Positions 109 through 63,116 of a stretch of 64,000 nucleotides of DNA are shown here, piece by piece. The notes under the pieces are model-generated. The model was not told where the DNA came from and ran no database searches. It was given only the letters and a program-made list of their open reading frames with translations. Source of the DNA: an uncultured Methanosarcinales archaeon (GTDB taxonomy: Archaea > Nanobdellota > Nanobdellia > Woesearchaeales > CAXGTL01). Each line of letters starts with the position of its first letter. The first letter of the stretch is position 1. Location: positions 70,068-134,067 of the forward strand of contig CAZYAB010000003.1 in NCBI GenBank assembly GCA_964645705.1, read 5' to 3'. Position numbers and translations under genes: made by a program.

Positions 109-153
109 CCCACCAAGCCTTTCCCCCGGCCACCCGCCCTTGTTATGGTGGGG
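109..153 (+). repeat. C-rich intergenic repeat, copy E1
   Basis: CCCACCAAGCCTTTCCCCCGGCCACCCGCCCTTGTTATGGTGGGG. Four C3+ tracts with loops of 11, 5 and 1 nt. CCCACCA (109-115) and TGGTGGG (146-152) can close a 7-bp stem. It lies 10 nt upstream of the Pelota ATG. Confidence 0.7.
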
Positions 154-291
154 ATCATATAATTAAGGGACAGACTATCTCTATATATAAAAAAGGATAA
201 CATTTATATATAAATCTATTTATAATGAATTATGTAGACAAGGGTCTAGCATATATATAGTTATTTAAAAAAAGAAACAGGTGGTATTAAA

Positions 292-1998
292 ATGTTAAGA
301 AAAAAATTTTCAAAAAAATCTCAAGAAGCAGGTGGAGGAAGTGCAGCTGTGTTTGTTGCTGTTATTGCTTTTATGATTATTCTATATATTTTGTTCTTGC
401 CTCCAGATGAAAGAGCACAAATATTGGGTGGAGACGGCAGTAGTTCTAGTGATGATTATGTTCCTGATTATGATGATATAGATGAAGATGATGATGATGC
501 AGATGAAGATGAGGATATATTGTTATTGGAAAATCCAGGTATGCTAAGCGTGCATGGTGATGATAGGATTTATCATTTTATTCAAAAAGTAAGGCTTTTT
601 GATGAATGGTCTGGGACTGTTTTAGAAGAACACAGGGCAGTGTCTGTGAAAAGAAGCTTGTTTGATAATGAACCAGAATTATTGATCTTAAGATTAGATG
701 ATTTTGAGAATACAAAAAGTCTTTTGATTGATTTTGTTATTAAAAAATCTGTAGGTGATCTAATGATTAAGTTTAATGAAGAAGCTGTTTTTGATGGTTA
801 TCTTACAGAAGGAACTATTGAGCCAATATCTATTAGAAATGATTTATTAAAAAAGAATAATCTTATTGAGTTCATTGTTTCATCACCTGGGCTAAGATTT
901 TGGAGAACAAATCAATATTATTTGGAAAATATTAAAGCGATTGGAACTATAAGAGATGTTTCACACATGATTACTAAGGAAAAATTCTTTATATCAGATG
1001 ACGAGTATGATTCTGCTGAAAAGATAGAGCTCAAGTATTATCCTTATTGTGATTCTAAGAAAATAGGACCACTAACAATAAAAGTAAATGATCAAGAAAT
1101 TTATTCTGGAACACCTTATTGTAATGCTGAAAGAACTGTTGAGTTTGGACCAGAGATAATTAATAAAGGAGACAATAATATTGAGTTCTCAACAACAAAA
1201 GGTAGTTATGAAATAAATAAAATTACAATAGAAGCAGAAGTAGACAAAAAAGAAGATTATTCATATTACTTTGACTTGGATGAAGACTATTTTATGGAAG
1301 TTGCAGAAGGAAGGTGCGGTGATGTTGATGATATTTGTCCTGCAGGTTGTTCAGAAGACGAAGACATAGATTGCTGCTTTGGAGCAGGTTCTGATAATTA
1401 TTGGTGTGACCTTGAACCAAGCAATGTCGACAATAGATGTGTTACAGATGTTGAAGATAATGAATGCGGATTGTGTTTAACAGGGTATGAAGATGAGTAT
1501 GGTTATCCTCATGATTCTTGTGAAGGATTGTGTGGTGATGATACTGATGATTTGTGTCATTCTGGCTGTAATAAGAATTATGATAAGGATTGTTGTTATG
1601 TAGATGATTCTGATAATTATTGGTGTGATTATGTGCCGGATGCTGGTTTAAGCAGTGTATGTGAAGATTCAATATCTTCTGGCGAGTGTGATGACTGTCT
1701 TACAAATTACAAGAATGAAAATAAAGACATTCCAATTATATGTGACAGGTATCCGTCAGGAAAATATAAACTAAAGAAAGGATATAAAGTTTTGTTAGAC
1801 TTTAAATTCTTAGACGATGATAAGGAAAAGAAATTTGAATTAAACATCAATGGAAGAAAAGATATGATAAGAACTGATGATGACACAGAATCAAAAGATA
1901 TATCTTCAAAAGTAAGAAGAAATTATAATTCATTGCTTATCAAGCCAGAAAAATCATTTGAAATTGCAGAAATAAAAGTAACTTTGGAGAAAAATTGA
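292..1998 (+). CDS. Membrane-anchored acidic, Cys-rich surface protein (function unknown)
   Basis: 568-aa ORF with AGGTGGT 8 nt upstream of the ATG. It has an N-terminal TM helix (AAVFVAVIAFMIILYILFL) and a poly-Asp/Glu stretch. Two tandem ~70-aa Cys-rich modules follow (CGDxxDDxC..GC..D.DCC...SDNYWCD...EC..CLT.Y). Confidence 0.8.
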   Translation: MLRKKFSKKSQEAGGGSAAVFVAVIAFMIILYILFLPPDERAQILGGDGSSSSDDYVPDYDDIDEDDDDADEDEDILLLENPGMLSVHGDDRIYHFIQKVRLFDEWSGTVLEEHRAVSVKRSLFDNEPELLILRLDDFENTKSLLIDFVIKKSVGDLMIKFNEEAVFDGYLTEGTIEPISIRNDLLKKNNLIEFIVSSPGLRFWRTNQYYLENIKAIGTIRDVSHMITKEKFFISDDEYDSAEKIELKYYPYCDSKKIGPLTIKVNDQEIYSGTPYCNAERTVEFGPEIINKGDNNIEFSTTKGSYEINKITIEAEVDKKEDYSYYFDLDEDYFMEVAEGRCGDVDDICPAGCSEDEDIDCCFGAGSDNYWCDLEPSNVDNRCVTDVEDNECGLCLTGYEDEYGYPHDSCEGLCGDDTDDLCHSGCNKNYDKDCCYVDDSDNYWCDYVPDAGLSSVCEDSISSGECDDCLTNYKNENKDIPIICDRYPSGKYKLKKGYKVLLDFKFLDDDKEKKFELNINGRKDMIRTDDDTESKDISSKVRRNYNSLLIKPEKSFEIAEIKVTLEKN

Positions 1999-2019
1999 TT
2001 TTTTTATTTTTTTATTTTG
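1999..2019 (+). terminator. Oligo-T tract directly after the stop codon (archaeal-type terminator candidate)
   Basis: TTTTTTTATTTTTTTATTTTG starts immediately after the TGA at 1996-1998. Confidence 0.35.
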
Positions 2020-2079
2020 CATGTTTTAAAAAAAGAGGAGTGGTTGAATGAAAACATTAAAATTTAACAGGGTGGAAAA

Positions 2080-5586: not shown

Positions 5587-5609
5587 ACAATTAATAAAAA
5601 TTAATAAAA

Positions 5610-6596: not shown

Positions 6597-6601
6597 GTAT
6601 T

Positions 6602-6729: not shown

Positions 6730-6758
6730 TATATAAAAGGAATAAAATACTATATAAA

Positions 6759-7970: not shown

Positions 7971-8960
7971 ATGAAAATAAAAACAATATTTGCTATTAGC
8001 ATGATTTTGTTGCTAATTTTGGTTATATCTGGTTGTGATGAAGAAGTAAGCAATACATCTCCTGGTGATGCATTCTTAGGTGGACAAGCAGGATTAAAAG
8101 TTGAGTTTCAAAAAGGAATGCCGCCTCCTGAAGTGCTTGATGATAATAAACAAAGATTTGGAATAGCTGTCAAACTTCATAATATTGGTGAATCAGATGT
8201 TATTGCAAATGGTGGTTATGTGGAAATAGTAGGTATCAATGCAAAACAGTTTGGTAAAAATAATCAAGATGATTTGAAAAAAGAAATAGATGATGAATTA
8301 AAAGGAGCGAAAAAGAGTTTAAGAGGAGGAGAAAGGATTGATGGAGGACAAACTATTGTTGAGTTCTCTGATTTAAAATATAAACCAGATCTTCCAGGTG
8401 ATAATAAATTTAACATTGTTGCTGATGTTTGCTATAACTATAAAACAACTAGCGTTGTAAATGTTTGTGTTAAAAAAGACTTGTTAAAAGATTTGTCAGA
8501 TGAAAAGATTTGTCAAGTAACAGGTGACAAAGATGTTCAAAATTCAGGAGGACCAATACATATAACAAAAGTGTCACAAAATCCGATAGGCGATAGTAAG
8601 ATACAGTTATTGTTTACTATTGCTCATGTAGGTGATCCTGAAGATAGTTTTTTCAAAAGAGGAACTGATTGTGATGATAGTACTGTAAATGATGATAGGT
8701 ATAGAGTGTATTTTAAGATATTAAGTGATATAGACGGTGCAAAACCTCAATGTAATAGGCTAGAAACAGCTTCTGGTGATAATGTGGATAGGTCAGAAGG
8801 TTATATTACTTTATATGATAGAGAAGAACAACCTATGTCATGTACAATTGATCTTAGCGGTGTTTCAAGCAAAGCTTTTGAAACTGTTCTTAAACTTGAG
8901 ATGGAATACAGATATTTACAAAGCTTGGGTAAAGAATTGATTGTCAAGGATGTGAGTTAG
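7971..8960 (+). CDS. Secreted lipobox protein, paralog 3 of 3 (unknown family)
   Basis: AGGTGAT lies 6 nt upstream of the ATG. Signal peptide plus ISGC lipobox. Shared motifs are GQAGLKVEF..MPPP, CYNYKTTSVVNVCV, SGGPIHITKV and MEYRYLQSLGKELIV. Confidence 0.85.
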   Translation: MKIKTIFAISMILLLILVISGCDEEVSNTSPGDAFLGGQAGLKVEFQKGMPPPEVLDDNKQRFGIAVKLHNIGESDVIANGGYVEIVGINAKQFGKNNQDDLKKEIDDELKGAKKSLRGGERIDGGQTIVEFSDLKYKPDLPGDNKFNIVADVCYNYKTTSVVNVCVKKDLLKDLSDEKICQVTGDKDVQNSGGPIHITKVSQNPIGDSKIQLLFTIAHVGDPEDSFFKRGTDCDDSTVNDDRYRVYFKILSDIDGAKPQCNRLETASGDNVDRSEGYITLYDREEQPMSCTIDLSGVSSKAFETVLKLEMEYRYLQSLGKELIVKDVS

Positions 8961-9010
8961 ACCTGCCAAGCCTTTCCCCCGACCACCCGCCCCAGGGTAA
9001 GTAGTAGGGA
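8961..9010 (+). repeat. C-rich intergenic repeat, copy E2
   Basis: ACCTGCCAAGCCTTTCCCCCGACCACCCGCCCCAGGGTAAGTAGTAGGGA begins immediately after the TAG stop of the preceding gene. Confidence 0.7.
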
Positions 9011-9012
9011 CA

Positions 9013-17930: not shown

Positions 17931-18961
17931 AAGAATTTATTTAATCCTTGTTGTTTTTTGTCTTTTTCTTTTGTTTTTAGCTTTTTTAAAGTATTGTTGA
18001 TTCTCTCTTCTGTAAAATCATGTTTACTATGAAGTATGTGTTTAATTGCTTCTAAGTCTACTTCTTTCCATTCTAGTGTGTAGTCATCTGTAGTTGGCAT
18101 GTTTTTGATTAAGTCAAATATTATTTTCCATCCAATATCAAAAAATTCATTCCACTTAGCTTGTTCAAAAACTTTGTCAAAGTCTTTGCCGTGTTCTTTG
18201 ATTAATTTTAATGCTTTTTTTGGACCAATGCCTTTTATACCGCCATAATTATAATCTGTTCCTACTAAAATTGCAATTACTATCAATTGATCTTGGTCAA
18301 TTCCTAATAAATTTAATATCTTGGATATTTCTATTAATTCTGGTTTAACTGTTTTGTATGCTAATTGGCCTGGCTTTTTTCTTTTACCAGAAACTGATAA
18401 ATTTTTTATTAGTTTTGGTACTCCAAACAATAAAGCGTCTGCATCATTTGTTGATAATGCATAAACATCTCCTTTCTTAACCATATAAGCTGCTTGTGCT
18501 TCGCCCTCAGAAGGTGCTTGTATAACTGGCAATCCTAATGCTTTGATAAGTTCTTTTGCTTCTTGTATCATTTCTGTTGTTAATCTTGTTGTCATTGATG
18601 CATATTTTTTCATAGCATCAATGTCTTCATCCTTCATTGCTTTGTCATATTTTTTAGCTGCTTGGATCTTTATTTCTTTTCTTCTTTGTCTTTCTTTTGT
18701 CTTTAGTTCTGGTGGTTTGCCGTCAAAAACAAAGCATGGTTTAATATTATGTTCTAGCATCTTTGCTGTTCTGCTGAATAAACCTACCAAATGACTAGTT
18801 ACTTGGCCTTTTGAATCTTTTAATAAAGTGCCATCTCTTTGTCTTATTGTTGTCAAGAATTGGTATAAATACATGTGTGCGTCTATTGCAATCTTTTTTC
18901 CAGCTAAATCTTTTAAATTGATTTCTTTTGATTCTATTAATTGAAAGATTTTTGTGCCCAT
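17927..18961 (-). CDS. fen1: Flap endonuclease 1
   Basis: MGTKIFQLIE...IAIDAHMYLYQFL..., plus H3TH and C-terminal PIP-like QQGLNKFF. The start is moved to the ATG at 18959-18961, because the track's 22-aa extension runs into repeat E3. Confidence 0.95.
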   Translation of the reverse strand: MGTKIFQLIESKEINLKDLAGKKIAIDAHMYLYQFLTTIRQRDGTLLKDSKGQVTSHLVGLFSRTAKMLEHNIKPCFVFDGKPPELKTKERQRRKEIKIQAAKKYDKAMKDEDIDAMKKYASMTTRLTTEMIQEAKELIKALGLPVIQAPSEGEAQAAYMVKKGDVYALSTNDADALLFGVPKLIKNLSVSGKRKKPGQLAYKTVKPELIEISKILNLLGIDQDQLIVIAILVGTDYNYGGIKGIGPKKALKLIKEHGKDFDKVFEQAKWNEFFDIGWKIIFDLIKNMPTTDDYTLEWKEVDLEAIKHILHSKHDFTEERINNTLKKLKTKEKDKKQQGLNKFF

Positions 18962-19002
18962 TGTGTTTGGGTTGGTGGGGTGATATTTAAAGGTTATTAT
19001 GT

Positions 19003-19050
19003 CCCACCATCCTAGACCCCCAACCACCCGCCCTTGGTTAGGTAGTTGAG
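19003..19050 (+). repeat. C-rich intergenic repeat, copy E3
   Basis: CCCACCATCCTAGACCCCCAACCACCCGCCCTTGGTTAGGTAGTTGAG, with four C3+ tracts (loops 11, 5, 1). An upstream TGGTGGG (18973-18979) is complementary to CCCACCA (19003-19009). Confidence 0.7.
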
Positions 19051-19077
19051 CTATGTTTTTTGAATTTTTTATTAGAA

Positions 19078-20293: not shown

Positions 20294-21073
20294 TTATAAT
20301 ATATAAATCATTCTATCTTCTTGGGTCTGATGAACTATAGGTTCTATTAATCTATTTACCACAAATTCTAATTCTCTTAATTTTCTTTCATTTAACATTG
20401 TTTTTGGGTTTGTAGATCCTGGAGTAAAACCTTTATTATTAATCCCAAAACTCTCAGCAACATTATAAAAGAATATTCTAGACACATCCATATATTCTGG
20501 AAAAAATCTTTTCCATTCATCATAAGTAAAACTACTTCTTAAAGAATTTTCAAACAATCTTTTATTTTGCTCATCATAATGTCCTGCTAAATATCCTAAA
20601 AACAATCTTTGTAAAATATCTTCACTTGCAGGCCTAATCAAATCCCTAATAAAAATTCCTCCGTCTGGTTTAACAACTCTCAAAATTTCATTAATTGTTT
20701 TTCTTGGATCTTCTAAATGATGTAGTAATGAATGACACATGACCAAATCAAAACTTTCAGACTCGTAGGGCAGATTATTAGAATCACCAACCTCATACAT
20801 GGTTTGAGGATCTTGTTTCTTAGCATATTCAATTAACCTTTCATCAATATCTAAACCATACAATTCATAACCTTGTATTTGATCCTCATCTTCCCTTATT
20901 TGTCTTAACATTTTTCCAGTTCCACATCCAATATCTAATATTTTACCAAATGAACACAATTCTAAAGCTCTATTCAAGAAATAATCATTTACTAAATCAA
21001 GAGTTTTTAAATTATCATAAGCTAACATTATGTCTACATCTCCCATATCATCCATTTCTAGTATTCTTTTCAT
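20294..21073 (-). CDS. Class I SAM-dependent methyltransferase
   Basis: ILDIGCGTGKM (motif I), GLDIDE, FDLVMCHSLLHHL and VKPDGGIF. It overlaps the rSAM gene by 4 nt. Confidence 0.85.
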   Translation of the reverse strand: MKRILEMDDMGDVDIMLAYDNLKTLDLVNDYFLNRALELCSFGKILDIGCGTGKMLRQIREDEDQIQGYELYGLDIDERLIEYAKKQDPQTMYEVGDSNNLPYESESFDLVMCHSLLHHLEDPRKTINEILRVVKPDGGIFIRDLIRPASEDILQRLFLGYLAGHYDEQNKRLFENSLRSSFTYDEWKRFFPEYMDVSRIFFYNVAESFGINNKGFTPGSTNPKTMLNERKLRELEFVVNRLIEPIVHQTQEDRMIYIL

Positions 21074-22128
21074 GATGCAATACCCTCTTTGTTAATTCTT
21101 TCAACACAATATGGATCATTATTTGTTGATCCAGTAAGTGCTTCACTTATTATTGGACAACCACCCCTGCAAATTTCACCAAATTCACATTCAGAACAAA
21201 ACCCTTTTAGGCAAGATTTAGTAAATTTTCTATTATAAGGAAAAGCATTTTTGTTATTCCAAATGTCTTTTAATGATTTATCATTTAAATTGCCTTCAAT
21301 AAATTTATCTTTCATAGCAAGACAACCTTTTATAGAACCATTACTCATTATTCCTATCTCAAAAATCCCAGAATAACAACCAGTCCAAAATGGTAAAGAA
21401 TTTTCTTCTTTTTGGATTCTATATTTTTCTTCAAATCCACCAAAATATCCTACATTACACCCTGGATAGATTCTAACTTTCTTTTCCTTATTCTTCTCAA
21501 TAATAAATTCTATAAGTTTTCTCAAATCCTTTTTAGGGATCATAAAATCAGAACTCATTCTTCCAACAGGCATTGCTAATTGTATTTGCCAGACTTCAAC
21601 ACATAATTTTACAATTATATTATAAATTTCATCTAATTCCAGAAAATTAAATTTAGAAACAGTTGTCGCAATGCTTATTTTGATTCCATTTGACTTTAAT
21701 CTTTTAATAGTATTAATTATCTTATCAAAAACTCCTTTTCCTCTTATAGAGTCATTTGTTTCTTTTTTACCATCAATGCTTATTCCAAAATTATTTATTT
21801 TTGCTTTTTTTAGTTTACTAATAACTTCATCATTCATAATAGTTCCATTTGAAACAAAATTAACTTTTATTCCTAATTCATTCAATCTTTTAGAAACAGG
21901 AAACCACCTATCAGAAATCAAGGGTTCACCACCTATTAAAGTTACTTCTTTAGTTCCCAGTTCTTTTAGTTCATCACATAATTTCAGAGACCTATCTAAT
22001 GAAAGTTCATTTTTTCTACACTTTCCTGCAGATGAGCCACAATGTTTACAATTTAAATTACATGCTAATGTTAGTTCCCATGTAATATTGATAGGCTGCA
22101 ATCTAGAAGAATCTATTATTTCTTTCAT
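21070..22128 (-). CDS. Radical SAM enzyme with a C-terminal SPASM-type auxiliary Fe-S domain
   Basis: CNLNCKHC (CX3CX2C) at residues 23-30, and GGEPL. The C-terminus reads GCYSG...GSIKGC...GNL...IW...CSECEFGEICRGGCP...DPYC. Confidence 0.9.
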   Translation of the reverse strand: MKEIIDSSRLQPINITWELTLACNLNCKHCGSSAGKCRKNELSLDRSLKLCDELKELGTKEVTLIGGEPLISDRWFPVSKRLNELGIKVNFVSNGTIMNDEVISKLKKAKINNFGISIDGKKETNDSIRGKGVFDKIINTIKRLKSNGIKISIATTVSKFNFLELDEIYNIIVKLCVEVWQIQLAMPVGRMSSDFMIPKKDLRKLIEFIIEKNKEKKVRIYPGCNVGYFGGFEEKYRIQKEENSLPFWTGCYSGIFEIGIMSNGSIKGCLAMKDKFIEGNLNDKSLKDIWNNKNAFPYNRKFTKSCLKGFCSECEFGEICRGGCPIISEALTGSTNNDPYCVERINKEGIAS

Positions 22129-22141
22129 GTTTTCTAGATCT

Positions 22142-22264
22142 CTATATTCTCAAATCACTTCTGCATGAATAGATGCTTGAAAAACCAGCCAAAACTAAGC
22201 TTGCTCCACATTTTCCTTTAGCTAGCTTTTCAGCTACTCTTTGTTTTATTTGTTTGGCTTTCAT
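22142..22264 (-). CDS. Unannotated 40-aa peptide, candidate precursor/substrate of the downstream rSAM/SPASM enzyme
   Basis: Hand translation gives MKAKQIKQRVAEKLAKGKCGASLVLAGFSSIYSCRSDLRI*. The stop lies 13 nt before the rSAM ATG, and a TATA-like box lies ~26 nt upstream of its ATG. It is below the 60-aa threshold of the track. Confidence 0.45.
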   Translation of the reverse strand: MKAKQIKQRVAEKLAKGKCGASLVLAGFSSIYSCRSDLRI

Positions 22265-22286
22265 ACATAATAGGATAGTAATTTAA

Positions 22287-22295
22287 ATATATAAA
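22287..22295 (-). promoter_or_regulatory. TATA-box candidate for the peptide-rSAM operon (leaderless or short-leader mRNA)
   Basis: The minus strand reads TTTATATAT, centred ~26 nt upstream of the ATG at 22264. Confidence 0.35.
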
Positions 22296-22331
22296 CAATT
22301 GTTGTGGAAATTCTACTACAATATAGAAATA

Positions 22332-22340
22332 TTTATATAT
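22332..22340 (+). promoter_or_regulatory. TATA-box candidate for the divergent TrmB-family regulator
   Basis: TTTATATAT centred ~28 nt upstream of the ATG at 22364. Confidence 0.35.
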
Positions 22341-22363
22341 AATAATCAACTATAATATTCAAT

Positions 22364-23089
22364 ATGATCTCAAAACAAGAAGTATTAAAAGAATTAGGTT
22401 TGAATAACAAAGAAGTTTCAGTCTATGTATCATTACTTATGCTAGGCCAATCACCTGTTAATATAATAGCTAAAAAATCCAAATTAAATAGAGTAACTAC
22501 TTATGATATCTTAAAATCATTATTAGATAAAGGCTATGTATCATATGTAATAAAATCGGGTGTCAAATATTTTGAGGCAACAAATCCATCAATATTCATG
22601 CATAATCTTAAAGAAAAACAGAGTAAATTAAGGAAAGTTCTCCCTGAATTGAAAGCAATAAAAAGATCAATTAGAAGAAAGCCAAGTATTGAGATGTATG
22701 AAGAAATAAAGGGTTTAAAGTCTATATTTAATGATATTCTTAAGGAAAATAAAGAAACATGGTTTATTGGTGCCCCCAAGATGATAGGTAAGTTAAAATT
22801 TTATTTTCCTCATTTTATTAAACAAAAAAGAAAACAAAACATGTTTTCAAGAGTTATAACAACTGATTGCAGATCAATGAGAAAATATAAAAGAAAAGCT
22901 CCTAAAAAATATATTGGTATGAGATTTATTAACGATAAAATTAATACAACCAAAATTATTTATGAAAATAAGATTGCTTATTTAACGTTTAAAGATAAGA
23001 ATTCAATAGGAATAATAATTGATAATAAAGAGATTGCTAAACAAGAAAAAGCATTGTTTAATATATTATGGAAAAATTCTAAGAAATAA
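22364..23089 (+). CDS. TrmB-family winged-helix transcriptional regulator
   Basis: The N-terminus LGLNNKEVSVYVSLLMLGQSPVNIIAKKSKLNRVTTYDILKSLLDKGYV is typical of the TrmB HTH. Confidence 0.8.
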   Translation: MISKQEVLKELGLNNKEVSVYVSLLMLGQSPVNIIAKKSKLNRVTTYDILKSLLDKGYVSYVIKSGVKYFEATNPSIFMHNLKEKQSKLRKVLPELKAIKRSIRRKPSIEMYEEIKGLKSIFNDILKENKETWFIGAPKMIGKLKFYFPHFIKQKRKQNMFSRVITTDCRSMRKYKRKAPKKYIGMRFINDKINTTKIIYENKIAYLTFKDKNSIGIIIDNKEIAKQEKALFNILWKNSKK

Positions 23090-23091
23090 AA

Positions 23092-24237
23092 TCATTCTAT
23101 CTTCTTAACAACCAAACCTTTAAACTCTTTGTTAAGCATTTGTTCAGCTTTTTTAGTAACTTTACCAAGAGATAAATAAATTACAGGAAGTTTTTTGTTC
23201 TGACCTTTAATATATGCAGTTGAAAGATCACCTTCATTAGATCTCTTTTTCTTCTTAGCACAACAATAATAATCAACTGAACCAATTGCTGCAGGCACAG
23301 AAACAACTAAATCAATTTCACCTTTTTTAATTATTTCATAGTCTTTTATCTTCATTCCATTTGATTTCATGTATTCTCTTACTTGTACAAAGAATGCATC
23401 TTTTTCTTTTTCTACTCTTTCAGAGATAGGGACAATCTTTTTCTGAACTGCGGGTTTTATAGGTTCTTTACCTGTTTTTAATCTTTCTAGTTTTACTCTT
23501 TCCTGTCTAATCTCTTCCATCATTTGCATTAGTTCATTTCTTTGCTTTTTCATTTCTCTTTGTTGTTCTGAGAACAATTTTCTTTGCTTTTCTAGTTCTT
23601 TGTGTTCTTGTTCAATCTTTAGATGAAGCTCTTTTTCTAATTCCTTTTTCTCTTTTAATAACTCTTTTTCTTTTTTTTCTATTTCTTTCTTTTTTTCTAA
23701 GATGTCTTGTTTTTTACCAGGTTCTTCAATTTCTCTTTTAACAGGTTCTTTTTTCTTTTCTATTTTGAGTTTTTCCACTTTTCTCTTTGGTTTTGGAGCT
23801 AACATTTCTTTTATCAAACTTTGCGCTTGATTATTATCAAGCATATAAAATTTCCAGAAAATATGTTTTTGATTCTTAAAATTAACAACAAGTGAAACTG
23901 CAAAATCTTTTAAATTTCTAAGAGTTGCTTTTGTCATATTGTCTAATTTACTTTCTCTTAATATTCTTTTTTGTTTTAATAAATCAAATATTCTTTTTTC
24001 ATTATTATTCAGTTTGTCAGAGAATTCTTGCAATTTCTCTTTTTGAGAATCAACATAATATAATGGTGAACTACCTATTTTTAAATGGCTAAATTTGATC
24101 TTTTTCTTAGAAACTAATTCTGATAAATATGCGCCTGCATATGTAGTATTTATTTTGAAATGTTTTGCTACTTTAATTGATAACAAAGGGCCATTTTTTT
24201 GTACAAAATCCAAAACATCGTCTGGTGTCAATACCAT
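23092..24237 (-). CDS. Hypothetical protein: two winged-helix-like modules, a K/E coiled coil and a C-terminal PD-(D/E)XK-like module
   Basis: 381 aa. It contains ~120 aa of EKK/KEL heptad-like low complexity. The C-terminus reads GEIDLVVSV...YYCCAKKKK. Domain calls are tentative. Confidence 0.6.
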   Translation of the reverse strand: MVLTPDDVLDFVQKNGPLLSIKVAKHFKINTTYAGAYLSELVSKKKIKFSHLKIGSSPLYYVDSQKEKLQEFSDKLNNNEKRIFDLLKQKRILRESKLDNMTKATLRNLKDFAVSLVVNFKNQKHIFWKFYMLDNNQAQSLIKEMLAPKPKRKVEKLKIEKKKEPVKREIEEPGKKQDILEKKKEIEKKEKELLKEKKELEKELHLKIEQEHKELEKQRKLFSEQQREMKKQRNELMQMMEEIRQERVKLERLKTGKEPIKPAVQKKIVPISERVEKEKDAFFVQVREYMKSNGMKIKDYEIIKKGEIDLVVSVPAAIGSVDYYCCAKKKKRSNEGDLSTAYIKGQNKKLPVIYLSLGKVTKKAEQMLNKEFKGLVVKKIE

Positions 24238-24285
24238 GATTCGGTAGAAAGAAAAGGGTTTTATAAAGATTTCTATACTAAAAAC

Positions 24286-24903
24286 CTAAGGTCTTTTCCA
24301 AGCAACTTCCCAGTAAGTAACATCGCCTTCTTCGTCAACTACGCCAATAAGAAGTCTTTTCTTTGTACTGTGTGCTACTCTGTTTTTAGCTGAGAAATCA
24401 TGCCATGTTAATGTAGAACCCTCATGAACAGGGAATACAACCCATTTGGCATGGTCTTCGCCAGGTTTAATACCTCTATCATAAACTCTGAAATCTGCAC
24501 CAAACTTAAGAGCAGTTTTGATTATATAGCCTCTGTTTCTGAAATCTCTGAATACGCAATATCTGATCCAAAAATTAGGTTCTGTTTTTTGTGCTTTTTT
24601 TATGAATTTTTCACCTGATATTGGTTTGTTTCTCCCATCTAAGATAACCATCTTACCTTTTTCTGATAAATATAATGCTTCACAAAGTGATAATTGTACT
24701 TTTTTATCGTCAAGAATCTTTCCATAGCAACTTTTATTATAAAGTTCTCTTGCTTCATCAGTGTCTTCTGATATAACTCTTTCTTTTGCAAAAATTGATC
24801 TAATAGGTTCTTTTTTTGGTTTGTTTTCTAGATCTTTGTCTTTTTTGTCCTGTTTTGCTATTTTTTCTTCTTTTGATTTCTTTTCTTTTTTCTTTTTAGC
24901 CAT
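24286..24903 (-). CDS. endA: tRNA-splicing endonuclease
   Basis: LSLCEALYL...FWIRYCVFRDFRNRGYIIKTALKFGADFRVY...HAKWVV, with a Lys-rich N-terminal extension. Confidence 0.85.
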   Translation of the reverse strand: MAKKKKEKKSKEEKIAKQDKKDKDLENKPKKEPIRSIFAKERVISEDTDEARELYNKSCYGKILDDKKVQLSLCEALYLSEKGKMVILDGRNKPISGEKFIKKAQKTEPNFWIRYCVFRDFRNRGYIIKTALKFGADFRVYDRGIKPGEDHAKWVVFPVHEGSTLTWHDFSAKNRVAHSTKKRLLIGVVDEEGDVTYWEVAWKRP

Positions 24904-24958
24904 ATTAGTAGTAAAAAAGGGGGATAAATTTAAAAAGCTTTCTATAGTAATATACTAT

Positions 24959-25858
24959 ATGCAATTAACATTTTTAGGAACATCGTGTATGGTGCCAACT
25001 AAAGAAAGAAATGTACCAGGAGTTTTTCTTAAATATAAGTCTGAAGGAATATTATTTGATTGTGGTGAAGGAACACAAAGACAGATGAATATTACAGGAA
25101 TCAATAGAAACAAAGTTACAATGATTCTTTTAACGCATTGGCATGGTGATCATGTTGCAGGTATAATTGGTTTGTTGCAAACAATGGGTAATAGAGAGTT
25201 TAATCCTAAAGTTGAGATCTTTGGACCAAAAGGCACAAAAAAAAGATTGTGTTTGTTAATGGATGCTATACATTTTGACGTCATGATTAGGTTGAAGGTT
25301 CATGATATTGATGCTAAAAAGCCTGAAGCAATATTTAATTGTAAAGATTTTAAGATAATAGCAGCTAATATGAAGCACAATGTTCCATGCGTAGCTTATT
25401 CATTTATTGAAAAAGACAGAAAAAATATTGATAAATCATTTTTAGAAAAAAATAAAATAAAAGACGGGCCGCATCTTAAGAAATTAAGTGCTGGAAAAGA
25501 TATTGTGTACAAAGGTAAGAAGTATAAAGCACAAGATGCTACTTATATTATCAAAGGTAAAAAGATTAGTTATGTTGTAGATACAGAAGTTTGTAATAAT
25601 GCAATTGAATTAGCAAGAGATTCTGATATATTGATATGTGAATCAACATATTCATCTAAGTTAAGAGATAAAGCAGAACAAAGAAAGCACATGACATCAA
25701 AAGATGCAGCAATGATTGCTAATCAAGCTAATGTCAAAAAGTTAATATTGACACATTTTTCTCAAAGATATAAAAACACTTTAGAATTACAAGAGGATGC
25801 ACAAACTTATTTTGATAATGTTATTTGTGCTGAAGATTTTATGAAGATTAGTTTGTGA
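24959..25858 (+). CDS. rnz: Ribonuclease Z (tRNA 3' processing, metallo-beta-lactamase)
   Basis: MQLTFLGTS..., and the LTHWHGDHVAG (HxHxDH) motif. The start is moved to the ATG at 24959, because the track's extension is antisense to endA. Confidence 0.9.
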   Translation: MQLTFLGTSCMVPTKERNVPGVFLKYKSEGILFDCGEGTQRQMNITGINRNKVTMILLTHWHGDHVAGIIGLLQTMGNREFNPKVEIFGPKGTKKRLCLLMDAIHFDVMIRLKVHDIDAKKPEAIFNCKDFKIIAANMKHNVPCVAYSFIEKDRKNIDKSFLEKNKIKDGPHLKKLSAGKDIVYKGKKYKAQDATYIIKGKKISYVVDTEVCNNAIELARDSDILICESTYSSKLRDKAEQRKHMTSKDAAMIANQANVKKLILTHFSQRYKNTLELQEDAQTYFDNVICAEDFMKISL

Positions 25859-25888
25859 GAAAAATAAAAAAAAATAAAATTAATTCAA

Positions 25889-26518
25889 TTATTTACTATA
25901 TTTCTTTTCTGCTTTGCCTAAGAAAGCTTTTAGTCTCTCAGTTGATGGTAATTCTCTATGTGATGGCATTTTAACAAATCCTTCATTATACATTTTTTCA
26001 ATAGATTTCTTGTTGACATAATTAAGTTTACTAACTTCTTTTACAAATCTTATTTTTTTCAATGCTTTGTTTGCAGCCTCTTTTATTGATTCTAGTGTAA
26101 TACTGTATTTTTCTATCAATTCTTCTGCTTTTTCAAAGTTTGGTCCTATTAATCCATCTATGTTATTCCAATGTCCCATTAAATAGGATGTTAATGCAAT
26201 TACTATATCCCTTTCCATTCCTTTATACTTTATTCCAAATTTTTCTGCACTTTCTATAGTTCTTGCAATTTTTCTTTCATAAAAACCATATGTACATTCA
26301 TCAAATCCAATTATTTCATCATTTTCATTGTATCGTGGATTTATAATAACTTCTTGTCCTAATTTCTTTTTTCCTTCTTTTGATATTAGTTCAAATGCAG
26401 ATTTAACTTGTTCTTCAGGATACTTTTCTTTAATTTCCTTTATTTCATACTGCCAATCGTTCCTTTTAAGGAACATCTTTGTTAGTTCTTCTAAATCTTT
26501 TTTAAGTTCTTCTTTCAT
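25889..26518 (-). CDS. Hypothetical protein (second gene of a two-gene cassette)
   Basis: 209-aa charged protein. Its upstream context GGAGGAAAATAAAAATG is identical to that of the neighbouring gene. Confidence 0.7.
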   Translation of the reverse strand: MKEELKKDLEELTKMFLKRNDWQYEIKEIKEKYPEEQVKSAFELISKEGKKKLGQEVIINPRYNENDEIIGFDECTYGFYERKIARTIESAEKFGIKYKGMERDIVIALTSYLMGHWNNIDGLIGPNFEKAEELIEKYSITLESIKEAANKALKKIRFVKEVSKLNYVNKKSIEKMYNEGFVKMPSHRELPSTERLKAFLGKAEKKYSK

Positions 26519-26562
26519 TTTTATTTTCCTCCATTCATTTCATAATTAAAAAATAAAAAAAA

Positions 26563-27360
26563 CTATTCAAGGTATTTCTTAGCTTGTTCCTTGAATTGTT
26601 CTATGTATTCTGGTTCTATTTCTGCATATTCCATGATTGCTGGAAGTTCTCTCATTACTCCTATTGCTTCCTTTTTTTCATTTTGAAGTGCTTTAATCAT
26701 GCTGTCATCTATTTCTCCTCTACCAACCCAACCAGGCCTTAAGAGCCTACTTGGCCCAATATGTCCTTTTTCTTTTACTTTCTCTATTTCAGTTACTTTA
26801 TCAAGAGTATATATTGAAACTGCTTTGATGTAATCACGCATTATTGCTAAACTTTCTTCAAATAAGTCTGATTTAAAACCTTCCTCTTCCAATATTTTAC
26901 TCCTATCTTCAAGACTTATTACTCCTGCTTCACTAAAATCTTTTACAGTAATTAGTGGGCTTATTCTGTAAATCATATTACCAATAAAATGATTTAGTTG
27001 ATAACCTGAATCATAATGCATTCTTAAATCATCACCACCTATTTCACTACCATCTACTGCACGCCCATACCAATGTAATGACTTAATTCTATTTTCAAAT
27101 TCTTGTGTAAATTCACCATCTTCATTTACTCTGTCTGGGTATGCTTGTTTTATTTTTTCTATATCTTGGTCTATCTTTTTCCTTTTTTCTAAACGTACTT
27201 TGTAATCCTCAAGTATCTCTTTTGCATGTCTTATAGCACCATATACTAGGCCTCTCCAACTAAAGAAAACACCAACCCCTCTTGTATCTACACTTTGAAG
27301 TAGTTTGATACTTTTTTCATCAATTCCAATTATTTTTTCTAATTTTTGTTTTTCATTCAT
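26563..27360 (-). CDS. Hypothetical protein (first gene of a two-gene cassette)
   Basis: 265 aa, with the same GGAGGAAAATAAAAATG initiation context. IEKIKQAYPDRV resembles IKEIKEKYPEEQV in the partner. Confidence 0.7.
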   Translation of the reverse strand: MNEKQKLEKIIGIDEKSIKLLQSVDTRGVGVFFSWRGLVYGAIRHAKEILEDYKVRLEKRKKIDQDIEKIKQAYPDRVNEDGEFTQEFENRIKSLHWYGRAVDGSEIGGDDLRMHYDSGYQLNHFIGNMIYRISPLITVKDFSEAGVISLEDRSKILEEEGFKSDLFEESLAIMRDYIKAVSIYTLDKVTEIEKVKEKGHIGPSRLLRPGWVGRGEIDDSMIKALQNEKKEAIGVMRELPAIMEYAEIEPEYIEQFKEQAKKYLE

Positions 27361-27541
27361 TTTTATTTTCCTCCTTTTTTAGTGTTTTTTTATACAGGAA
27401 AAGAAGTAGAATCTCTGCCTCTTTCCTAACACTATTTGTTATTATGTAATAATAGTAACAAATTAACATATATTAAAGTTCTCATCAAAAGTTGAGCAAA
27501 AATAACAATATTTATATACAAATACTCATTTATGCAAATAT

Positions 27542-28549
27542 ATGGTTGAATTTACTAAGTATAAGCTTGATAAGTCAGATAGAAAGATACTAACTGAACT
27601 AGACAAAAACTGTAGAATTCCTACTACAAAACTAGCAAAAATAGTGAGAAAGTCAAGGCAAGCTGTTGAATATAGAATAAGTCAATTAGTTAAAAAAGGC
27701 ATTATAACTAGCTTTAATGCTGCTATTAATCCACATAAAATGGGTTATAAAATATATAAAATCTATCTAAAGCTTAGAAACATACCTGAAGAAAAAGATA
27801 AACTATTTACGTACCTAAAATCATCAGGAATTATATATTGGATGGGTGAATGTTCTGGTACTTGGGACCTAATATTTGGAGTTTTTGCAAAAACAGATTA
27901 TGAATTTTTTGAATTAAAGAATGATCTTACTTCTAAATTTAATAAAATAATAGTTCAAGAAAAAGGTGGAATATTAGTTGATGTAAAACAATATGCAAAA
28001 ATGTATTTCACCAATAATATTGTTCCACCAACAATGTTTGCTGGAGAAATAATAAACAATGAATTAGATGAACTTGATTATGCAATATTGACAGAGATTG
28101 TAAACAATGCAAGGATACCAATAAATCATCTAGCACATAATGTTAATTCAACTGCAACTATTGTAAGAACTAAATTAAAAAAACTAGAAAAAAAAGGAGT
28201 AATAATACAATATAGAATAGGAATCAACTTAAACAAATTAGGTTTAGAACTGTATAAAGCAATTATTAGATTAGACAGATATACAAAACAAGATGAAAAA
28301 AAATTATTAGAATATTTGTCCAGATTACCAAATATACATTATTATATTAGAAATATTTGGCAAATAGAGCCAGAGCTTGTTGTGTCAAGTTACCAAGAAT
28401 ATTATGAAATAATAGAAAATTTAAAAAAAGAGTTTCCATATGTAATAAGAACAGTTGATCATGTTCTTATGATTACAGATGAATGGACACCCGGGTTTAA
28501 GAATTTATTGAAAATAAAAAATGAAAAACAAAAAACAAAAAGGTTCTAA
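27542..28549 (+). CDS. Tandem (duplicated) Lrp/AsnC-family transcriptional regulator
   Basis: There are two HTH_AsnC-like modules. One is LDKSDRKILTELDKNCRIPTTKLAKIV.... The other is LDELDYAILTEIVNNARIPINHLAH.... Each is followed by a ligand-domain-like segment. Confidence 0.8.
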   Translation: MVEFTKYKLDKSDRKILTELDKNCRIPTTKLAKIVRKSRQAVEYRISQLVKKGIITSFNAAINPHKMGYKIYKIYLKLRNIPEEKDKLFTYLKSSGIIYWMGECSGTWDLIFGVFAKTDYEFFELKNDLTSKFNKIIVQEKGGILVDVKQYAKMYFTNNIVPPTMFAGEIINNELDELDYAILTEIVNNARIPINHLAHNVNSTATIVRTKLKKLEKKGVIIQYRIGINLNKLGLELYKAIIRLDRYTKQDEKKLLEYLSRLPNIHYYIRNIWQIEPELVVSSYQEYYEIIENLKKEFPYVIRTVDHVLMITDEWTPGFKNLLKIKNEKQKTKRF

Positions 28550-28934
28550 TGCAGAAAGAGAATTAGTCCACTTATTCTGGAAATATGATTGGGCTGCCTG
28601 CCGTGTTGCCGGATCCGGATCTATGGCTTATCCTTCTCCGGACATTCTTGCCAGCAACAACATAAGAAAACTAGCAATAGAATGCAAAGCAACAAAAGAT
28701 AATAAAGTTTATTTATCAAAAAGAGAAGTTGATGAACTTCAGCTATTCTCAAACAAGTTCGGAGCAGAACCTTGGATAGGTGTTAGGTTTGATAATGATA
28801 AATGGTATTTCTTTAATATTGAAGACATGAAGATTAGCAGAGGAAAAAACTATCTAATAGATTTTAAAACTTCTAAATTAAAAGGATTAGAATTTAAAGA
28901 ATTAATTGGTGTTTTTAAACAACAAAGATTGTAA
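28521..28934 (+). CDS. hjc: Holliday junction resolvase Hjc
   Basis: KGSNAERELVHLFWKYDWAACRVAGSGS...PDILA...LAIECKAT. Confidence 0.85.
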   Translation: MKNKKQKGSNAERELVHLFWKYDWAACRVAGSGSMAYPSPDILASNNIRKLAIECKATKDNKVYLSKREVDELQLFSNKFGAEPWIGVRFDNDKWYFFNIEDMKISRGKNYLIDFKTSKLKGLEFKELIGVFKQQRL

Positions 28935-29037
28935 TTCTGTTTATACCGTATATGTGCTGTATAAAAATAAAAAAAATAAAATAAAAATAGAAAGCTTTAT
29001 ATACTTAAATTAGTCACCGTAGTAGTTAAGCTAAAAA

Positions 29038-29541
29038 ATGAGGTTGACAAAGAACGTAATTTTTGATGTTGTTGGTGAAGTAGTGGGTGACGATGTAATA
29101 CCATTAGTTAAATTATTAGATACAAAGAGAGATGTTTCTGAAATAAAGTTAGCAAAAAAAATAGGATCAGAAGTAAATATTGTTCGAAGCATGTTGTATA
29201 GATTATATTATAATAATCTTGTTTGTTGTTCTAAAAGAAAAGATATTAAAACCGGCTGGTATGTTTATCACTGGTTTTTGAATGCAAGAAGATTAAAGTA
29301 TATGTTTAAGAATGTAAGGTTGAAGAAAATAAATAAATTAAAAGAAAGATTATTAAGAGAACAAGAAGAGCAGTTTTTTAATTGTATTGAAAGTTGCATA
29401 AGATTGAATTTTGACCAAGCAATTGATTTCAAGTTCCAATGTCCTGAATGCGGTGCTTTGCTGGAAATGGAAAACAATGGACATTGTATAGAAAGATTAA
29501 AAGAGAAAATACTTGTTCTAGAAAAAGAACTAAAGAAATAA
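29038..29541 (+). CDS. tfe: Transcription factor E (TFE alpha)
   Basis: N-terminal winged helix (EIKLAKKIGSEVNIVRSMLYRLYYNNLV...GWYVYHWFLN) and a zinc ribbon (FQCPECGALL). Confidence 0.8.
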   Translation: MRLTKNVIFDVVGEVVGDDVIPLVKLLDTKRDVSEIKLAKKIGSEVNIVRSMLYRLYYNNLVCCSKRKDIKTGWYVYHWFLNARRLKYMFKNVRLKKINKLKERLLREQEEQFFNCIESCIRLNFDQAIDFKFQCPECGALLEMENNGHCIERLKEKILVLEKELKK

Positions 29542-31804: not shown

Positions 31805-31855
31805 ACCTGCCTGACCCACATCCCAATCCATGGGCAGTAAGTTGTGATTCTTAGG
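31805..31855 (+). repeat. Degenerate copy (E8) of the C-rich intergenic repeat
   Basis: CCTGCCTGACCCACATCCCAATCCATGGGCAGTAAGTTGTGATTCTTAGGC. It shares GTAAGTTGT with E6 and TGATTCTTAGGC with E7. CTGCC and GGCAG are complementary. Confidence 0.4.
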
Positions 31856-37118: not shown

Positions 37119-37166
37119 CCCGCCATCCAATGCCCCCGATCACCCACTCCTGGGAAAGTAAGTGGC
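37119..37166 (+). repeat. C-rich intergenic repeat, copy E4
   Basis: CCCGCCATCCAATGCCCCCGATCACCCACTCCTGGGAAAGTAAGTGGC, between pheS and pheT. Confidence 0.65.
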
Positions 37167-38863: not shown

Positions 38864-38865
38864 TT

Positions 38866-38914
38866 CCCACCATCCAAACCTCCCGGCCACCCACCCAGGG
38901 TTTGATAAGAGGAC
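38866..38914 (+). repeat. C-rich intergenic repeat, copy E5
   Basis: CCCACCATCCAAACCTCCCGGCCACCCACCCAGGGTTTGATAAGAGGAC, with four C3 tracts (loops 13, 5, 1). It starts 3 nt after the pheT stop. Confidence 0.7.
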
Positions 38915-40678: not shown

Positions 40679-40724
40679 CCCACCTTCCAGCCCCCAACCG
40701 CCCACCCTGGTTTGGTAAGTTGTC
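40679..40724 (+). repeat. C-rich intergenic repeat, copy E6
   Basis: CCCACCTTCCAGCCCCCAACCGCCCACCCTGGTTTGGTAAGTTGTC, with four C3+ tracts (loops 9, 5, 1). It starts 4 nt after the pan stop. Confidence 0.7.
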
Positions 40725-40776: not shown

Positions 40777-40851
40777 GTGTGTGTTCATTAGTTACTTCCG
40801 TTCATCATCACCCGAAGGTTCAGAGGGTGTTCACCAAATCATCACACACAG
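40777..40851 (-). ncRNA. Candidate C/D box sRNA
   Basis: The minus strand reads cUGUGU-GUGAUGA-15nt-CUGA-ACCUUCGGG(A)UGAUGA-13nt-AUGA-ACACACAC. C, D' and C' boxes are recognisable and the termini form a GUGUG/CACAC stem. The D box is a non-canonical AUGA, and one guide spacer is longer than the usual ~12 nt. Confidence 0.4.
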
Positions 40852-54052: not shown

Positions 54053-54067
54053 TTTGTTTTATTGCTT

Positions 54068-54113
54068 ACCAATTCCATTCCCCGACTACCTGCCCCATGG
54101 CAGATATGTTGAG
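54068..54113 (+). repeat. Degenerate copy (E9) of the C-rich intergenic repeat
   Basis: ACCAATTCCATTCCCCGACTACCTGCCCCATGGCAGATATGTTGAG lies between rps19 and rpl22. CTGCC and GGCAG are complementary, as in E8. Confidence 0.4.
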
Positions 54114-54139
54114 TTACTTTATTGGTGGTTATTTTATCT

Positions 54140-59059: not shown

Positions 59060-59139
59060 ATATTTGGGAGGTTTTTGGGGTTTATATGTTTTGTTGTTTT
59101 TGGTAATGTTTATATATTCTTAAAAGTATATTTGTTAAT

Positions 59140-59517: not shown

Positions 59518-60033
59518 ATTAATCAGAATCATCAAACCACCAGAAATACAACAACCAATCAAAATATAAGTTCCTACTTTTAGTGCGTCTAATTGTTTTC
59601 TTATGACTTGTTCTAATTCAAATATTTCTTGTGCATATTCTTCAACAATGCCTTTGTCATTCTTAACTAATTTTAATAATTCTTTTTCATAATTTTTCTC
59701 ATTTAATCTCCCTGTTTCGTGTGTATGGAAGAATATGTTTAATCGTTTTCTGCTCTTTTTTGTTGTTAGTTCTGCTGCGCTTAAGCTAAATAATATTGCA
59801 AGCATTGTTCCTGCCATTATAATAATAACACCAGACCTGAATAATAATATTTCTTCTAAAAATGATTTTTTGAATATTTCATTTATTACAAAGCTTAAAA
59901 TTACACCAGATATAACAATTAGATAATGTGTTTTTGTAATTCCCTGTTTGTATAGCTCAATGTGAAGCTTTAGAATATCACTTAGTAGCATGCTTTTGCT
60001 AAAATTTAAGTCAGGGAACCTCTTTTTTGTCAT
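59506..60033 (-). CDS. Hypothetical membrane protein (3 predicted TM helices)
   Basis: 175-aa ORF with hydrophobic segments HYLIVISGVILSFVI, GVIIIMAGTMLAILF and TYILIGCCISGGLMILINLF. Confidence 0.6.
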   Translation of the reverse strand: MTKKRFPDLNFSKSMLLSDILKLHIELYKQGITKTHYLIVISGVILSFVINEIFKKSFLEEILLFRSGVIIIMAGTMLAILFSLSAAELTTKKSRKRLNIFFHTHETGRLNEKNYEKELLKLVKNDKGIVEEYAQEIFELEQVIRKQLDALKVGTYILIGCCISGGLMILINLFL

Positions 60034-60068
60034 AATATGTTGTTTTTAGGTAAAGAAGTTTATAAAGT

Positions 60069-62267: not shown

Positions 62268-62298
62268 GAATTTGTGAGAAGTTTAAGGTTTATATAGA

Positions 62299-62769
62299 TT
62301 ATTGTGTTTGAGCAATAATATTGTCTAGATCTTGTGCAGGGATAGTAATTATATAATGCGCTGGTGTAGTTGTTCTACTACCTAGGTAAAGTGTTGGTGT
62401 GTGTTTTTTTACATGTCTTACAGAAAAATTATCTCTTTCAGAGATAAAAAATGTATAACCTATGTCTTCTACTTTTTCATTATACCCATACACTTCTTTT
62501 AGATATGACATAACTTCGCCAAGTTCCATGACATTGTTGTTGTTTGCATCGTATGGGGCTAATTGCCGCATTAGAACTTGTTTTCTTCTTGCATTTAATT
62601 GTCTTGCTGGTTCAAGTGCCCATTTATCAATAAAATGTCCAGAGGTAGCAAATGTTGCTACACAAAAAAGAAGTATTGCACTTGCTTTTAATGGAAACCA
62701 TTTTCTTGCAGCTATTTTAACAGCTTTTTCATATAAATTTCCTTGTTCTTGATCTATACTTTGTTCCAT
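62299..62769 (-). CDS. Hypothetical single-pass membrane protein
   Basis: 156-aa ORF with one TM helix (ASAILLFCVATFATSG). Confidence 0.6.
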   Translation of the reverse strand: MEQSIDQEQGNLYEKAVKIAARKWFPLKASAILLFCVATFATSGHFIDKWALEPARQLNARRKQVLMRQLAPYDANNNNVMELGEVMSYLKEVYGYNEKVEDIGYTFFISERDNFSVRHVKKHTPTLYLGSRTTTPAHYIITIPAQDLDNIIAQTQ

Positions 62770-62822
62770 TGTAATTATATTTAATAAGAATTGAATTTAA
62801 ATAATTTTGTATTGTAGAGAAT

Positions 62823-63041
62823 CTACTTCTTAACTTCCATATACCCGCACTTACCACATGTTTTTCTGTCTTTGTGTTCTGCCATGAATACGCTAGGGCC
62901 GCATTTTGGGCAAGTTGTGTTCTTTCTTGCTAATTTGTTGCCTTCTATTTTATAGTTTTTGTACTTAGAACTAGTTTTTTTTGGTTTTCTTTTGATCTTG
63001 CCTTTTTTCTTAACTGGTTTGTGTGCTCTTTTCTTTCCCAT
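62823..63041 (-). CDS. rps27ae: 30S ribosomal protein S27ae (eS31)
   Basis: Zinc ribbon [24 protein letters not shown]. Confidence 0.9.
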
Positions 63042-63057
63042 TCATTTCACCAATTTG

Positions 63058-63116
63058 CCCACCGCAGGTTCCCCCGGCCACCCGCCCCTATGTCTTCTAG
63101 GAACTGATTCTTAGGC
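63058..63116 (+). repeat. C-rich intergenic repeat, copy E7
   Basis: CCCACCGCAGGTTCCCCCGGCCACCCGCCCCTATGTCTTCTAGGAACTGATTCTTAGGC, with four C3+ tracts (loops 10, 5, 1). It lies between the rps24e stop and the rps27ae start. Confidence 0.7.

Follow-up and report, generated by a model that had tools for sequence, protein, structure and literature searches.

A C-rich interspersed repeat with replication-type orientation bias in AT-rich DPANN archaea

The 64,000-nucleotide (nt) stretch of DNA analyzed here (contig CAZYAB010000003.1, positions 70,068 to 134,067; hereafter the window) carries nine copies of a short, C-rich sequence element, each with its C-rich strand on the plus strand. The host is an AT-rich DPANN archaeon (Woesearchaeota/Nanoarchaeota) with a genome of ~30% GC. 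On balance, we lean towards regarding the element as a non-autonomous, replication-polar, C-rich interspersed repeat of Woesearchaeota and Pacearchaeota, selfish and similar in kind to GC clusters or to MITEs (transposable elements of the miniature inverted-repeat type). As an analogy, the best reading would place it beside Rickettsia palindromic elements (RPEs) and yeast mitochondrial GC clusters. Each copy is inserted as a discrete unit. Genomes whose proteins are ~85% identical differ by gains and losses of copies, and shared copies drift after insertion. They are tolerated where they are least harmful, i.e., behind stop codons, ahead of the next Shine-Dalgarno sequence or promoter, and in frame in protein surface loops, and they sit right behind stop codons because the spacers are compact. 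Gain and loss, drift of shared copies, indifference to gene orientation, and translation of some copies together favor a tolerated interspersed repeat over a fixed regulatory, termination or processing signal. Among short selfish interspersed repeats it is unusual in that its C-rich core is strand-asymmetric, its polarity is of replication type, and it resides in frame in conserved genes of archaea.

The family has a core of ~30 nt, CCCACCAnCCAnnCCCCCRACCACCCRCCC, followed by a variable 3' part, and whole copies span ~45-75 nt. We searched both strands of the window, with filters off, using a sequence-only covariance model (R1) built from 13 copies, six from the window and seven external. The copies in the window are:

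109..153, plus strand: E1, in a divergent spacer, 10 nt upstream of the minus-strand start of pelota; model match 106-159, 43.2 bits.
8961..9010, plus strand: E2, in a convergent spacer, 1 nt past the stop at 8960; model match 8959-9011, 41.7 bits.
19003..19050, plus strand: E3, between two minus-strand genes, upstream of fen1; model match 19000-19052, 45.2 bits.
31805..31855, plus strand: D1, degenerate, in the rpoD/L18e spacer; not found by the model.
37119..37166, plus strand: E4, in the pheS-pheT spacer, an old copy also present in an 87% relative; model match.
38864..38914, plus strand: E5, between the pheT stop TAA and the A-run plus Shine-Dalgarno sequence of a pyrophosphatase gene; model match.
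40679..40724, plus strand: E6, beginning 4 nt past the PAN stop; model match.
54065..54128 (full extent), plus strand: D2, degenerate, in the S19/L22 spacer; model match 54068-54111, E=0.009.
63058..63116, plus strand: E7, in the S24e/S27ae spacer; model match.

An earlier reading of the window (the original prediction) had proposed seven clear and two degenerate copies, all in one orientation. The seven clear copies were all recovered with the C-rich strand on the plus strand, and R1 produced eight matches with E<0.01, every one of them on the plus strand, while the top minus-strand match had E=2.1. D2 was likewise upheld by the model; D1 was not, but it has a 3' module (GTAAGTTGTGATTCTTAGGC) in common with E6 and E7, and two relatives lack this insertion (see below). 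The core decamer CCACCCGCCC, allowing at most one mismatch, occurs six times in the window, always on the plus strand, compared with 0.04 matches expected. The exact four-tract architecture that had been attributed to five copies, C3-N9-13-C3-5-N5-C3-N1-C3, is matched by just those five (starting at 109, 19003, 38866, 40679 and 63058), has no minus-strand match, and was absent from 100 Markov-simulated sequences. It had also been proposed that the tracts are kept while the loops vary. The tracts are indeed kept, but the A in CCACCC and the "loop" CC are conserved too, and these conserved non-tract positions mean that the family is held together by homology and not by tract composition alone. 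The GC content of the window is 26-33%, and intergenic islands of at least 60% GC are almost all copies listed above. The copies are spaced roughly 7-8 kb apart, three between plus-strand genes, four between minus-strand genes, and one each in a convergent and a divergent spacer; their distances from stops (1-12 nt after) and starts (10-45 nt before) were as claimed, as was the occurrence of a shared TGATTCTTAGGC beside the stops of rps24e and rpoD. Directly left of E3, at 18951-18994 (plus strand), lies a G-rich stretch (..GGGTTGGTGGGG..) that corresponds, in reverse complement, to the first part of the core (CCCCACCAACCC). This stretch and E3 make up an inverted repeat that encloses a TTTAAA box upstream of fen1, and the stretch may be an incomplete copy that points the other way (model match E=9.2).

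Comparison with two relatives shows how the copies come and go. Relative 1 (L126, L127 and L161), which comes from the same JGI sample as the window, has 85-87% protein identity to it, and relative 2 (L129 and L162, from Tara) has 68% identity in pheT and 85% in Hef. Over homologous stretches of ~44 kb, the window genome contains seven copies, relative 1 two, and relative 2 none; of about nine sites, relative 1 retains only E4 (ortholog at L126:9817-9870) and a copy upstream of the hydrogenase operon. In filled/empty alignments with L126 and L127, E5 is a clean 52-nt indel with one ambiguous flanking A, and E6 lies within a ~93-nt insertion relative to L126. L126 and L129 lack a copy at the D1 site, and L161 and L162 lack copies at both the E7 and the D2 sites. 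Because each of these three sites is empty in two relatives, insertion in the window lineage is the parsimonious explanation. The Shine-Dalgarno sequence of the downstream gene is intact at E5, E7 and D2, and any target-site duplication amounts to no more than a single A at E5 and the TTATT flanks of D2, with AT-rich surroundings in both cases. The two copies shared between genomes differ at ~8 of 50 positions, including C-to-T changes in the core, which indicates that the core is not tightly constrained in place. E1 and E2 have a common 5' half, and E6, D1 and E7 have common 3' modules, a mosaic likeness that suggests recombination among copies. The original prediction had named a processing or termination signal among its options; a conserved signal of that sort, tied to particular genes, is not supported, given that most sites are empty at ~85% protein identity, shared copies have drifted in their cores, copies lie indifferently on the sense or antisense side of genes, and copies are translated in frame elsewhere. 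Directly after the E4 ortholog, L126:9877-9975 holds a perfect tandem array of (AAAAATAAAG) x 9.9, of which the window has about two units; this site is an N-gap in L127, and the assembly of a second sample breaks there.

The claim that the element occurs only in intergenic spacers holds for the window but not for the family, copies of which lie within three protein genes elsewhere. A single 329-codon open reading frame (ORF) for deoxyhypusine synthase (DHS; L035:5566-6555) contains a 75-nt insert that is a whole palindromic unit, GATTTTGGTTCAG-core-...CTGAACCAAAATT, the core being translated as SHRRPPTTHPG. The closest insert-free homologs, P0123 (76% identity) and P0124 (73%), are 304-305 aa long. 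At the same site, ~17 of the top 120 DHS homologs have inserts of 22-75 aa rich in P, T, H and S, and two of these read at the DNA level proved to contain degraded cores. The longer inserts (to ~75 aa), found in P0122, P0141, P0144 and P0139, contain several P/T/H-rich stretches, suggesting that copies may be nested or tandem there. In-frame copies also reside in a TYW3 methyltransferase (L132; ..IPPTNPPTTHPK..) and a PMT_2 glycosyltransferase (L135; ..KSHRQKPPTTRP..). The C-rich strand is the sense strand in all three genes, whose identities are confirmed by Pfam, and the copies are read in a common frame, ..PPTT(H/R)P... A bulge-helix-bulge intron (two 3-nt bulges, 4-bp helix) was ruled out for the DHS copy, which has a perfect 12-14 bp stem without bulges; inserts also keep the frame in many homologs. 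Stop-codon readthrough into a coding module was also rejected for the window: E2 and E4 follow a TAG in frame, but the E4 ortholog in L126 follows a TAA and is shifted by 2 nt, and E5 and E6 are in other frames.

The uniform orientation of the copies corresponds to a compositional asymmetry of the chromosome, which we measured at four-fold degenerate sites. The coding strand of plus-strand genes has an AT skew of -0.19 and a GC skew of +0.18, which are also the plus-strand values, and that of minus-strand genes has an AT skew of +0.23 and a GC skew of -0.21, equivalent to -0.23 and +0.21 on the plus strand. The sign is equal in both sets; therefore, T exceeds A and G exceeds C on the plus strand regardless of how the genes are oriented (overall AT -0.22, GC +0.20). 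The replication-type component is +0.19 for GC (95% confidence interval 0.11 to 0.27) and -0.21 for AT (-0.26 to -0.17), and the skew is visible gene by gene except at about 20300-29500. For every copy in the window genome (9-10 of 9-10), the C-rich strand coincides with the strand that has T>A and G>C, in line with the suggestion in the original prediction of a chromosome-polar sequence, as genes of both orientations give the same result. Among all usable skewed loci, the C-rich strand falls on the T>A strand for ~18 copies and on the other strand for three; the same polarity recurs in L106, L113 (two copies), L011, L117, L035 (two), L132/L142 and L147, and the copies at the two-copy loci L035, L113, L150 and L156 are concordant in four of four cases. 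The genes at about 20300-29500 lack the T>A skew (AT ~0 to +0.14) and no copy is present among them; this could be an inverted or recently acquired segment.

Polarity of this kind could also mark a host-functional DNA element, either a G-quadruplex (G4)/i-motif or a protein-bound duplex, with a role in replication, repair or segregation like that of Chi, FtsK-orienting polar sequences (KOPS) or a pause site. In favor of this, polarity is strict for the window genome and tends the same way elsewhere, genomes of 24-46% GC share a conserved core, the copies in the window are spaced ~7-8 kb apart, and the copies have G4 potential: G4Hunter scores of the G-rich strand are 1.1-2.2 overall and 1.28-1.92 for window copies, and, when G-quadruplex energies are included, ViennaRNA predicts a two-tetrad G4 in GGGYGGGUGGYYGGGGG for most copies. 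We nevertheless consider such a function unlikely. Sites are not conserved between close relatives, density varies from 0 to 9 copies per ~80 kb, core substitutions accumulate in shared copies, copies in coding sequences are translated, and polarity is reversed in three of the 12 copies that lie outside the window genome. Chi and KOPS are 5-8-mers that are G-rich on the leading strand and lie mostly within genes. The C-rich family resembles them in that its orientation is skewed relative to a replication-type asymmetry, but its G-rich strand lies on the opposite compositional strand, the neutrally G-poor one, and its copies are indels of ~50 nt at positions that are not conserved.

Given the G4Hunter scores and the ViennaRNA placement, G4 potential is robust as a computed property, and the predictors agree with the earlier description of the G-rich strand as quadruplex-type. 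Like a canonical G-quadruplex/i-motif, five of the seven clear window copies have four C3+/G3+ tracts, and a G4 is predicted in minimum-free-energy folds; the G4Hunter values of the window copies exceed the customary ~1.2. Unlike a canonical G4 motif, the element is a homologous repeat with conserved non-tract positions, and its first loop is long (9-13 nt).

Other structural properties vary among copies. Folds of single copies are not unusually stable relative to shuffled controls (z -2.3 to +0.7). Perfect 9-15 bp stems formed by terminal inverted repeats bracket the core in four copies outside the window (two in L035, and those in L147 and L140), and the homologous pair L035:4453 and L147:293 differs by three compensatory double changes in the stem. 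In the window, E1 and D2 have short terminal inverted repeats (CCCACCA...TGGTGGG in both; in D2, CTTACCAAT...ATTGGTGG, with TTATT at both flanks). Taken over the copies in and outside the window, the sequences of the terminal repeats differ from copy to copy. A general hairpin with the core in its loop was rejected, since own flanks did not differ significantly from swapped ones (duplex energy p=0.41 on the plus strand and 0.69 on the minus strand; longest helix p=0.56). In the window clade only, the 3' part (..GG-N3-4-GTAAGTGG..) has partial complementarity with the core: in 13 of 14 copies, the module pairs with CCACCCAC beyond random windows of the same locus (percentile <=0.12), and the pairing is better on the minus strand, through G-U pairs.

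This pairing, and the minus-strand RNA hairpins with G-U pairs, could point to a cis-acting mRNA element, either a 3'-end or processing signal or a mimic of the Shine-Dalgarno or anti-Shine-Dalgarno sequence, that modulates termination or translation of its neighbors. The G-rich strand contains GGUGG, a motif that E1 places 10 nt upstream of the AUG of pelota, the C-rich strand is similar to GAUCACC of the 16S 3' tail, and copies lie 1-12 nt past stops or 10-45 nt before starts. However, one and the same DNA strand is C-rich beside plus-strand and minus-strand genes alike, which would give some operons a C-rich RNA and others a G-rich one; in addition, fold z-scores are ordinary, stem tests against swapped partners are not significant, the orthologous genes of the relatives lack copies, and no Rfam family matches. 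We judge a cis-RNA role to be improbable.

More improbable still, and close to the bottom of what we would entertain, is that the copies are independent small-RNA genes of ~50-70 nt transcribed from one strand, which would pair with targets through a single-stranded region rich in C or G. In favor of this, islands of high GC in AT-rich genomes of archaea are often noncoding RNAs, and long stems with compensatory changes bracket some copies (L035:4453 versus L147:293, three double substitutions). Against this stand the inconsistent arrangement of promoters and terminators, the copies that abut stops or sit in ORFs, an orientation on one strand across 80 kb that independent genes would not be expected to have, and sites that are not conserved between relatives.

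The tolerated interspersed repeat that we favor extends well beyond the window. Matching of exact proteins located the same strain in several metagenomes and provided sequence beyond both window ends: an additional copy in the same orientation lies ~6 kb past the end of the window (L123:2302-2354), and no copy is present within 10 kb upstream. Homologs of pheT, Hef and DHS are named Woesearchaeota, Nanoarchaeota or Pacearchaeota. A pattern scan of GTDB returned mostly GC-rich bacteria, and among the matches listed 8-9 archaeal loci were usable, with several in AT-rich archaeal metagenome-assembled genomes (MAGs; CAXGTL01, CAZHVK01 and CAYXNP01). A metagenome scan with the core plus a run of eight W (an AT-rich tail) yielded 26 loci, mostly convincing, and the core recurs in contigs of Woesearchaeota and Pacearchaeota. 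The core is conserved over genomes of 24-46% GC, though the search pattern itself accounts for part of its invariance in the copies that came from scans. Perfect or near-perfect cores also occur in contigs far richer in GC, namely L108:102-136 (labelled Methanosarcinales, 50% GC), L156 (an archaeon of 42% GC), L138, and L136/L153, so the family may reach past AT-rich Woesearchaeota or may have been transferred. Rfam gave no match at gathering score in the window or at the copies in 20 loci, and matches at E<=10 were generic hairpin and miRNA noise only; ARAGORN found no tRNA in the window or beside any copy in 35 loci; and a scan of a viral collection returned nothing. The literature searched contains no description of the family, and the earlier judgment that it belongs to no recognized family stands: the family is genuine and lacks an Rfam match.

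Among known repeats, two are closest in behavior. RPEs are not known to have replication-polar orientation. Like the C-rich family, they are short and interspersed in the reduced, AT-rich genome of a host-dependent organism, and they occur both in spacers and in frame in unrelated housekeeping genes, to which they add a peptide (here DHS, TYW3 and PMT_2); in-frame insertion of RPEs into genes has been reported (PMC10969869). Unlike the archaeal copies (45-75 nt, C-rich core), RPEs are bacterial, ~100-150 bp long and without sequence similarity. Yeast mitochondrial GC clusters are 30-80 bp, polymorphic as indels and mostly noncoding, although also found in VAR1, with few conserved positions (PMC4464245). 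They share with the C-rich family GC-richness in a very AT-rich genome, a mostly noncoding location with some genic copies, and strong presence/absence variation, but they are organellar, often palindromic, and unrelated in sequence to this archaeal, strand-asymmetric element. Both hallmarks of these two groups were found here: presence/absence with clean boundaries, and in-frame copies in unrelated genes.

IS200/IS605 insertion sequences and elements of the palindrome-associated transposable element (PATE) or repetitive extragenic palindromic (REP) type also lack an obvious target-site duplication and involve hairpin-forming DNA, and IS200/IS605-type orientation bias relative to replication is present here, with the direction inferred from skew only. 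The C-rich family is much shorter than IS200/IS605, however, and has neither conserved left- and right-end hairpins nor GTAG or a fixed target tetranucleotide; its left flanks have no common target, two-hairpin ends are absent, and no gene for TnpA or for a REP-associated tyrosine transposase (RAYT) was seen in the accessible sequence (~150 kb). The REP/RAYT pattern is likewise missing, as there is no GTAG, all copies have one orientation, and there are no inverted pairs (bacterial interspersed mosaic elements, BIMEs). Compared with classical MITEs, terminal inverted repeats are present in some copies only, differ in sequence, and form stems no longer than those of swapped partners (p=0.56), and an insertion sequence with the same ends was not seen in the accessible part of the genome. 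Integron attC sites were rejected because RYYYAAC and GTTRRRY boxes are absent and the neighbors are housekeeping genes on both strands. We also considered tRNA halves, Rfam families, and the initiation-of-mutagenic-homing (IMH) sites of diversity-generating retroelements (DGRs), which found no support.

How might such an element acquire its polarity? A strand enriched in G and T usually has the leading-strand sequence and is the parental strand exposed as the lagging-strand template. The T/G-enriched strand, on which the C-rich strand lies, would then be the strand exposed as the lagging-strand template, and polarity could arise from insertion via single-stranded DNA at the replication fork, as for IS200/IS605. 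Insertions of the latter have been reported in that arrangement, into the lagging-strand template (PMC5027513). An additional or alternative cause might be selection against the placement of the G4-prone G-rich strand on the exposed template, and mobilization would presumably occur in trans, by an enzyme that recognizes the core.

Several observations weigh against a mobile repeat of this kind. The ~150 kb of accessible sequence contains no transposase, other mobilizing gene or autonomous relative, and the genes between the two L156 copies are housekeeping genes, with no mobile genes among them. No near-identical pair of copies, the signature of recent copying, is present in 80 kb, and the variable parts of lineage-specific copies are wholly different, a pattern that calls for either many source lineages or recombination among copies. 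Nor can a target-site duplication be demonstrated. Precise deletion in the relatives is possible at some sites, and unlikely for E7, D2 and D1, where two outgroups are empty. A host function could also account for the strong conservation that the core has in distant genomes, although the search pattern forces part of this conservation. With respect to polarity, nine copies outside the window genome agree and three do not (L007, L095 and, weakly, L091). Finally, the minus strand (enriched in A and C) carries 55 of the 74 genes called in the window, the ribosomal-protein operons among them, which is unexpected if the plus strand is leading, so the assignment of leading and lagging strands is an inference. 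By the usual rule, highly expressed genes would here lie on the lagging-type strand, an unusual arrangement.

A bolder interpretation, which we regard as doubtful, is that archaea here provide their first example of an interspersed element that is strand-specific, probably moves by way of single-stranded DNA, and reveals the direction of replication by its orientation. Its mobilization would depend on a kind of enzyme not yet linked to such repeats in DPANN archaea, and its G4-prone core may have taken on a further role as a polar signal of the chromosome.

Most DPANN archaea are uncultured, their genomes are tiny and streamlined, and little is known of their mobile DNA. The C-rich family indicates that such genomes still carry an active-looking interspersed repeat and that conserved proteins, including deoxyhypusine synthase and TYW3, are remodelled by its insertion. 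Since the orientation of copies tracks replication-type asymmetry, the element is a possible marker of replication direction in MAGs whose origins are not known, and its polarity points toward a single-strand or fork-coupled insertion mechanism in archaea. The dispersed, natural, predicted G4-prone sequences in a genome of 30% GC would also be useful for studying how the archaeal replisome handles such structures.

One neighboring locus is separate from the family. At 40777-40851 on the minus strand, a segment is conserved between the window and L126/L127 beyond its flanks. It has no Rfam match at E<=10 and resembles a C/D-box small RNA, with a terminal stem GUGUGUG...CACACAC, a C box GUGAUGA, a D' box CUGA, a C' box GUGAUGA and a weak D box.

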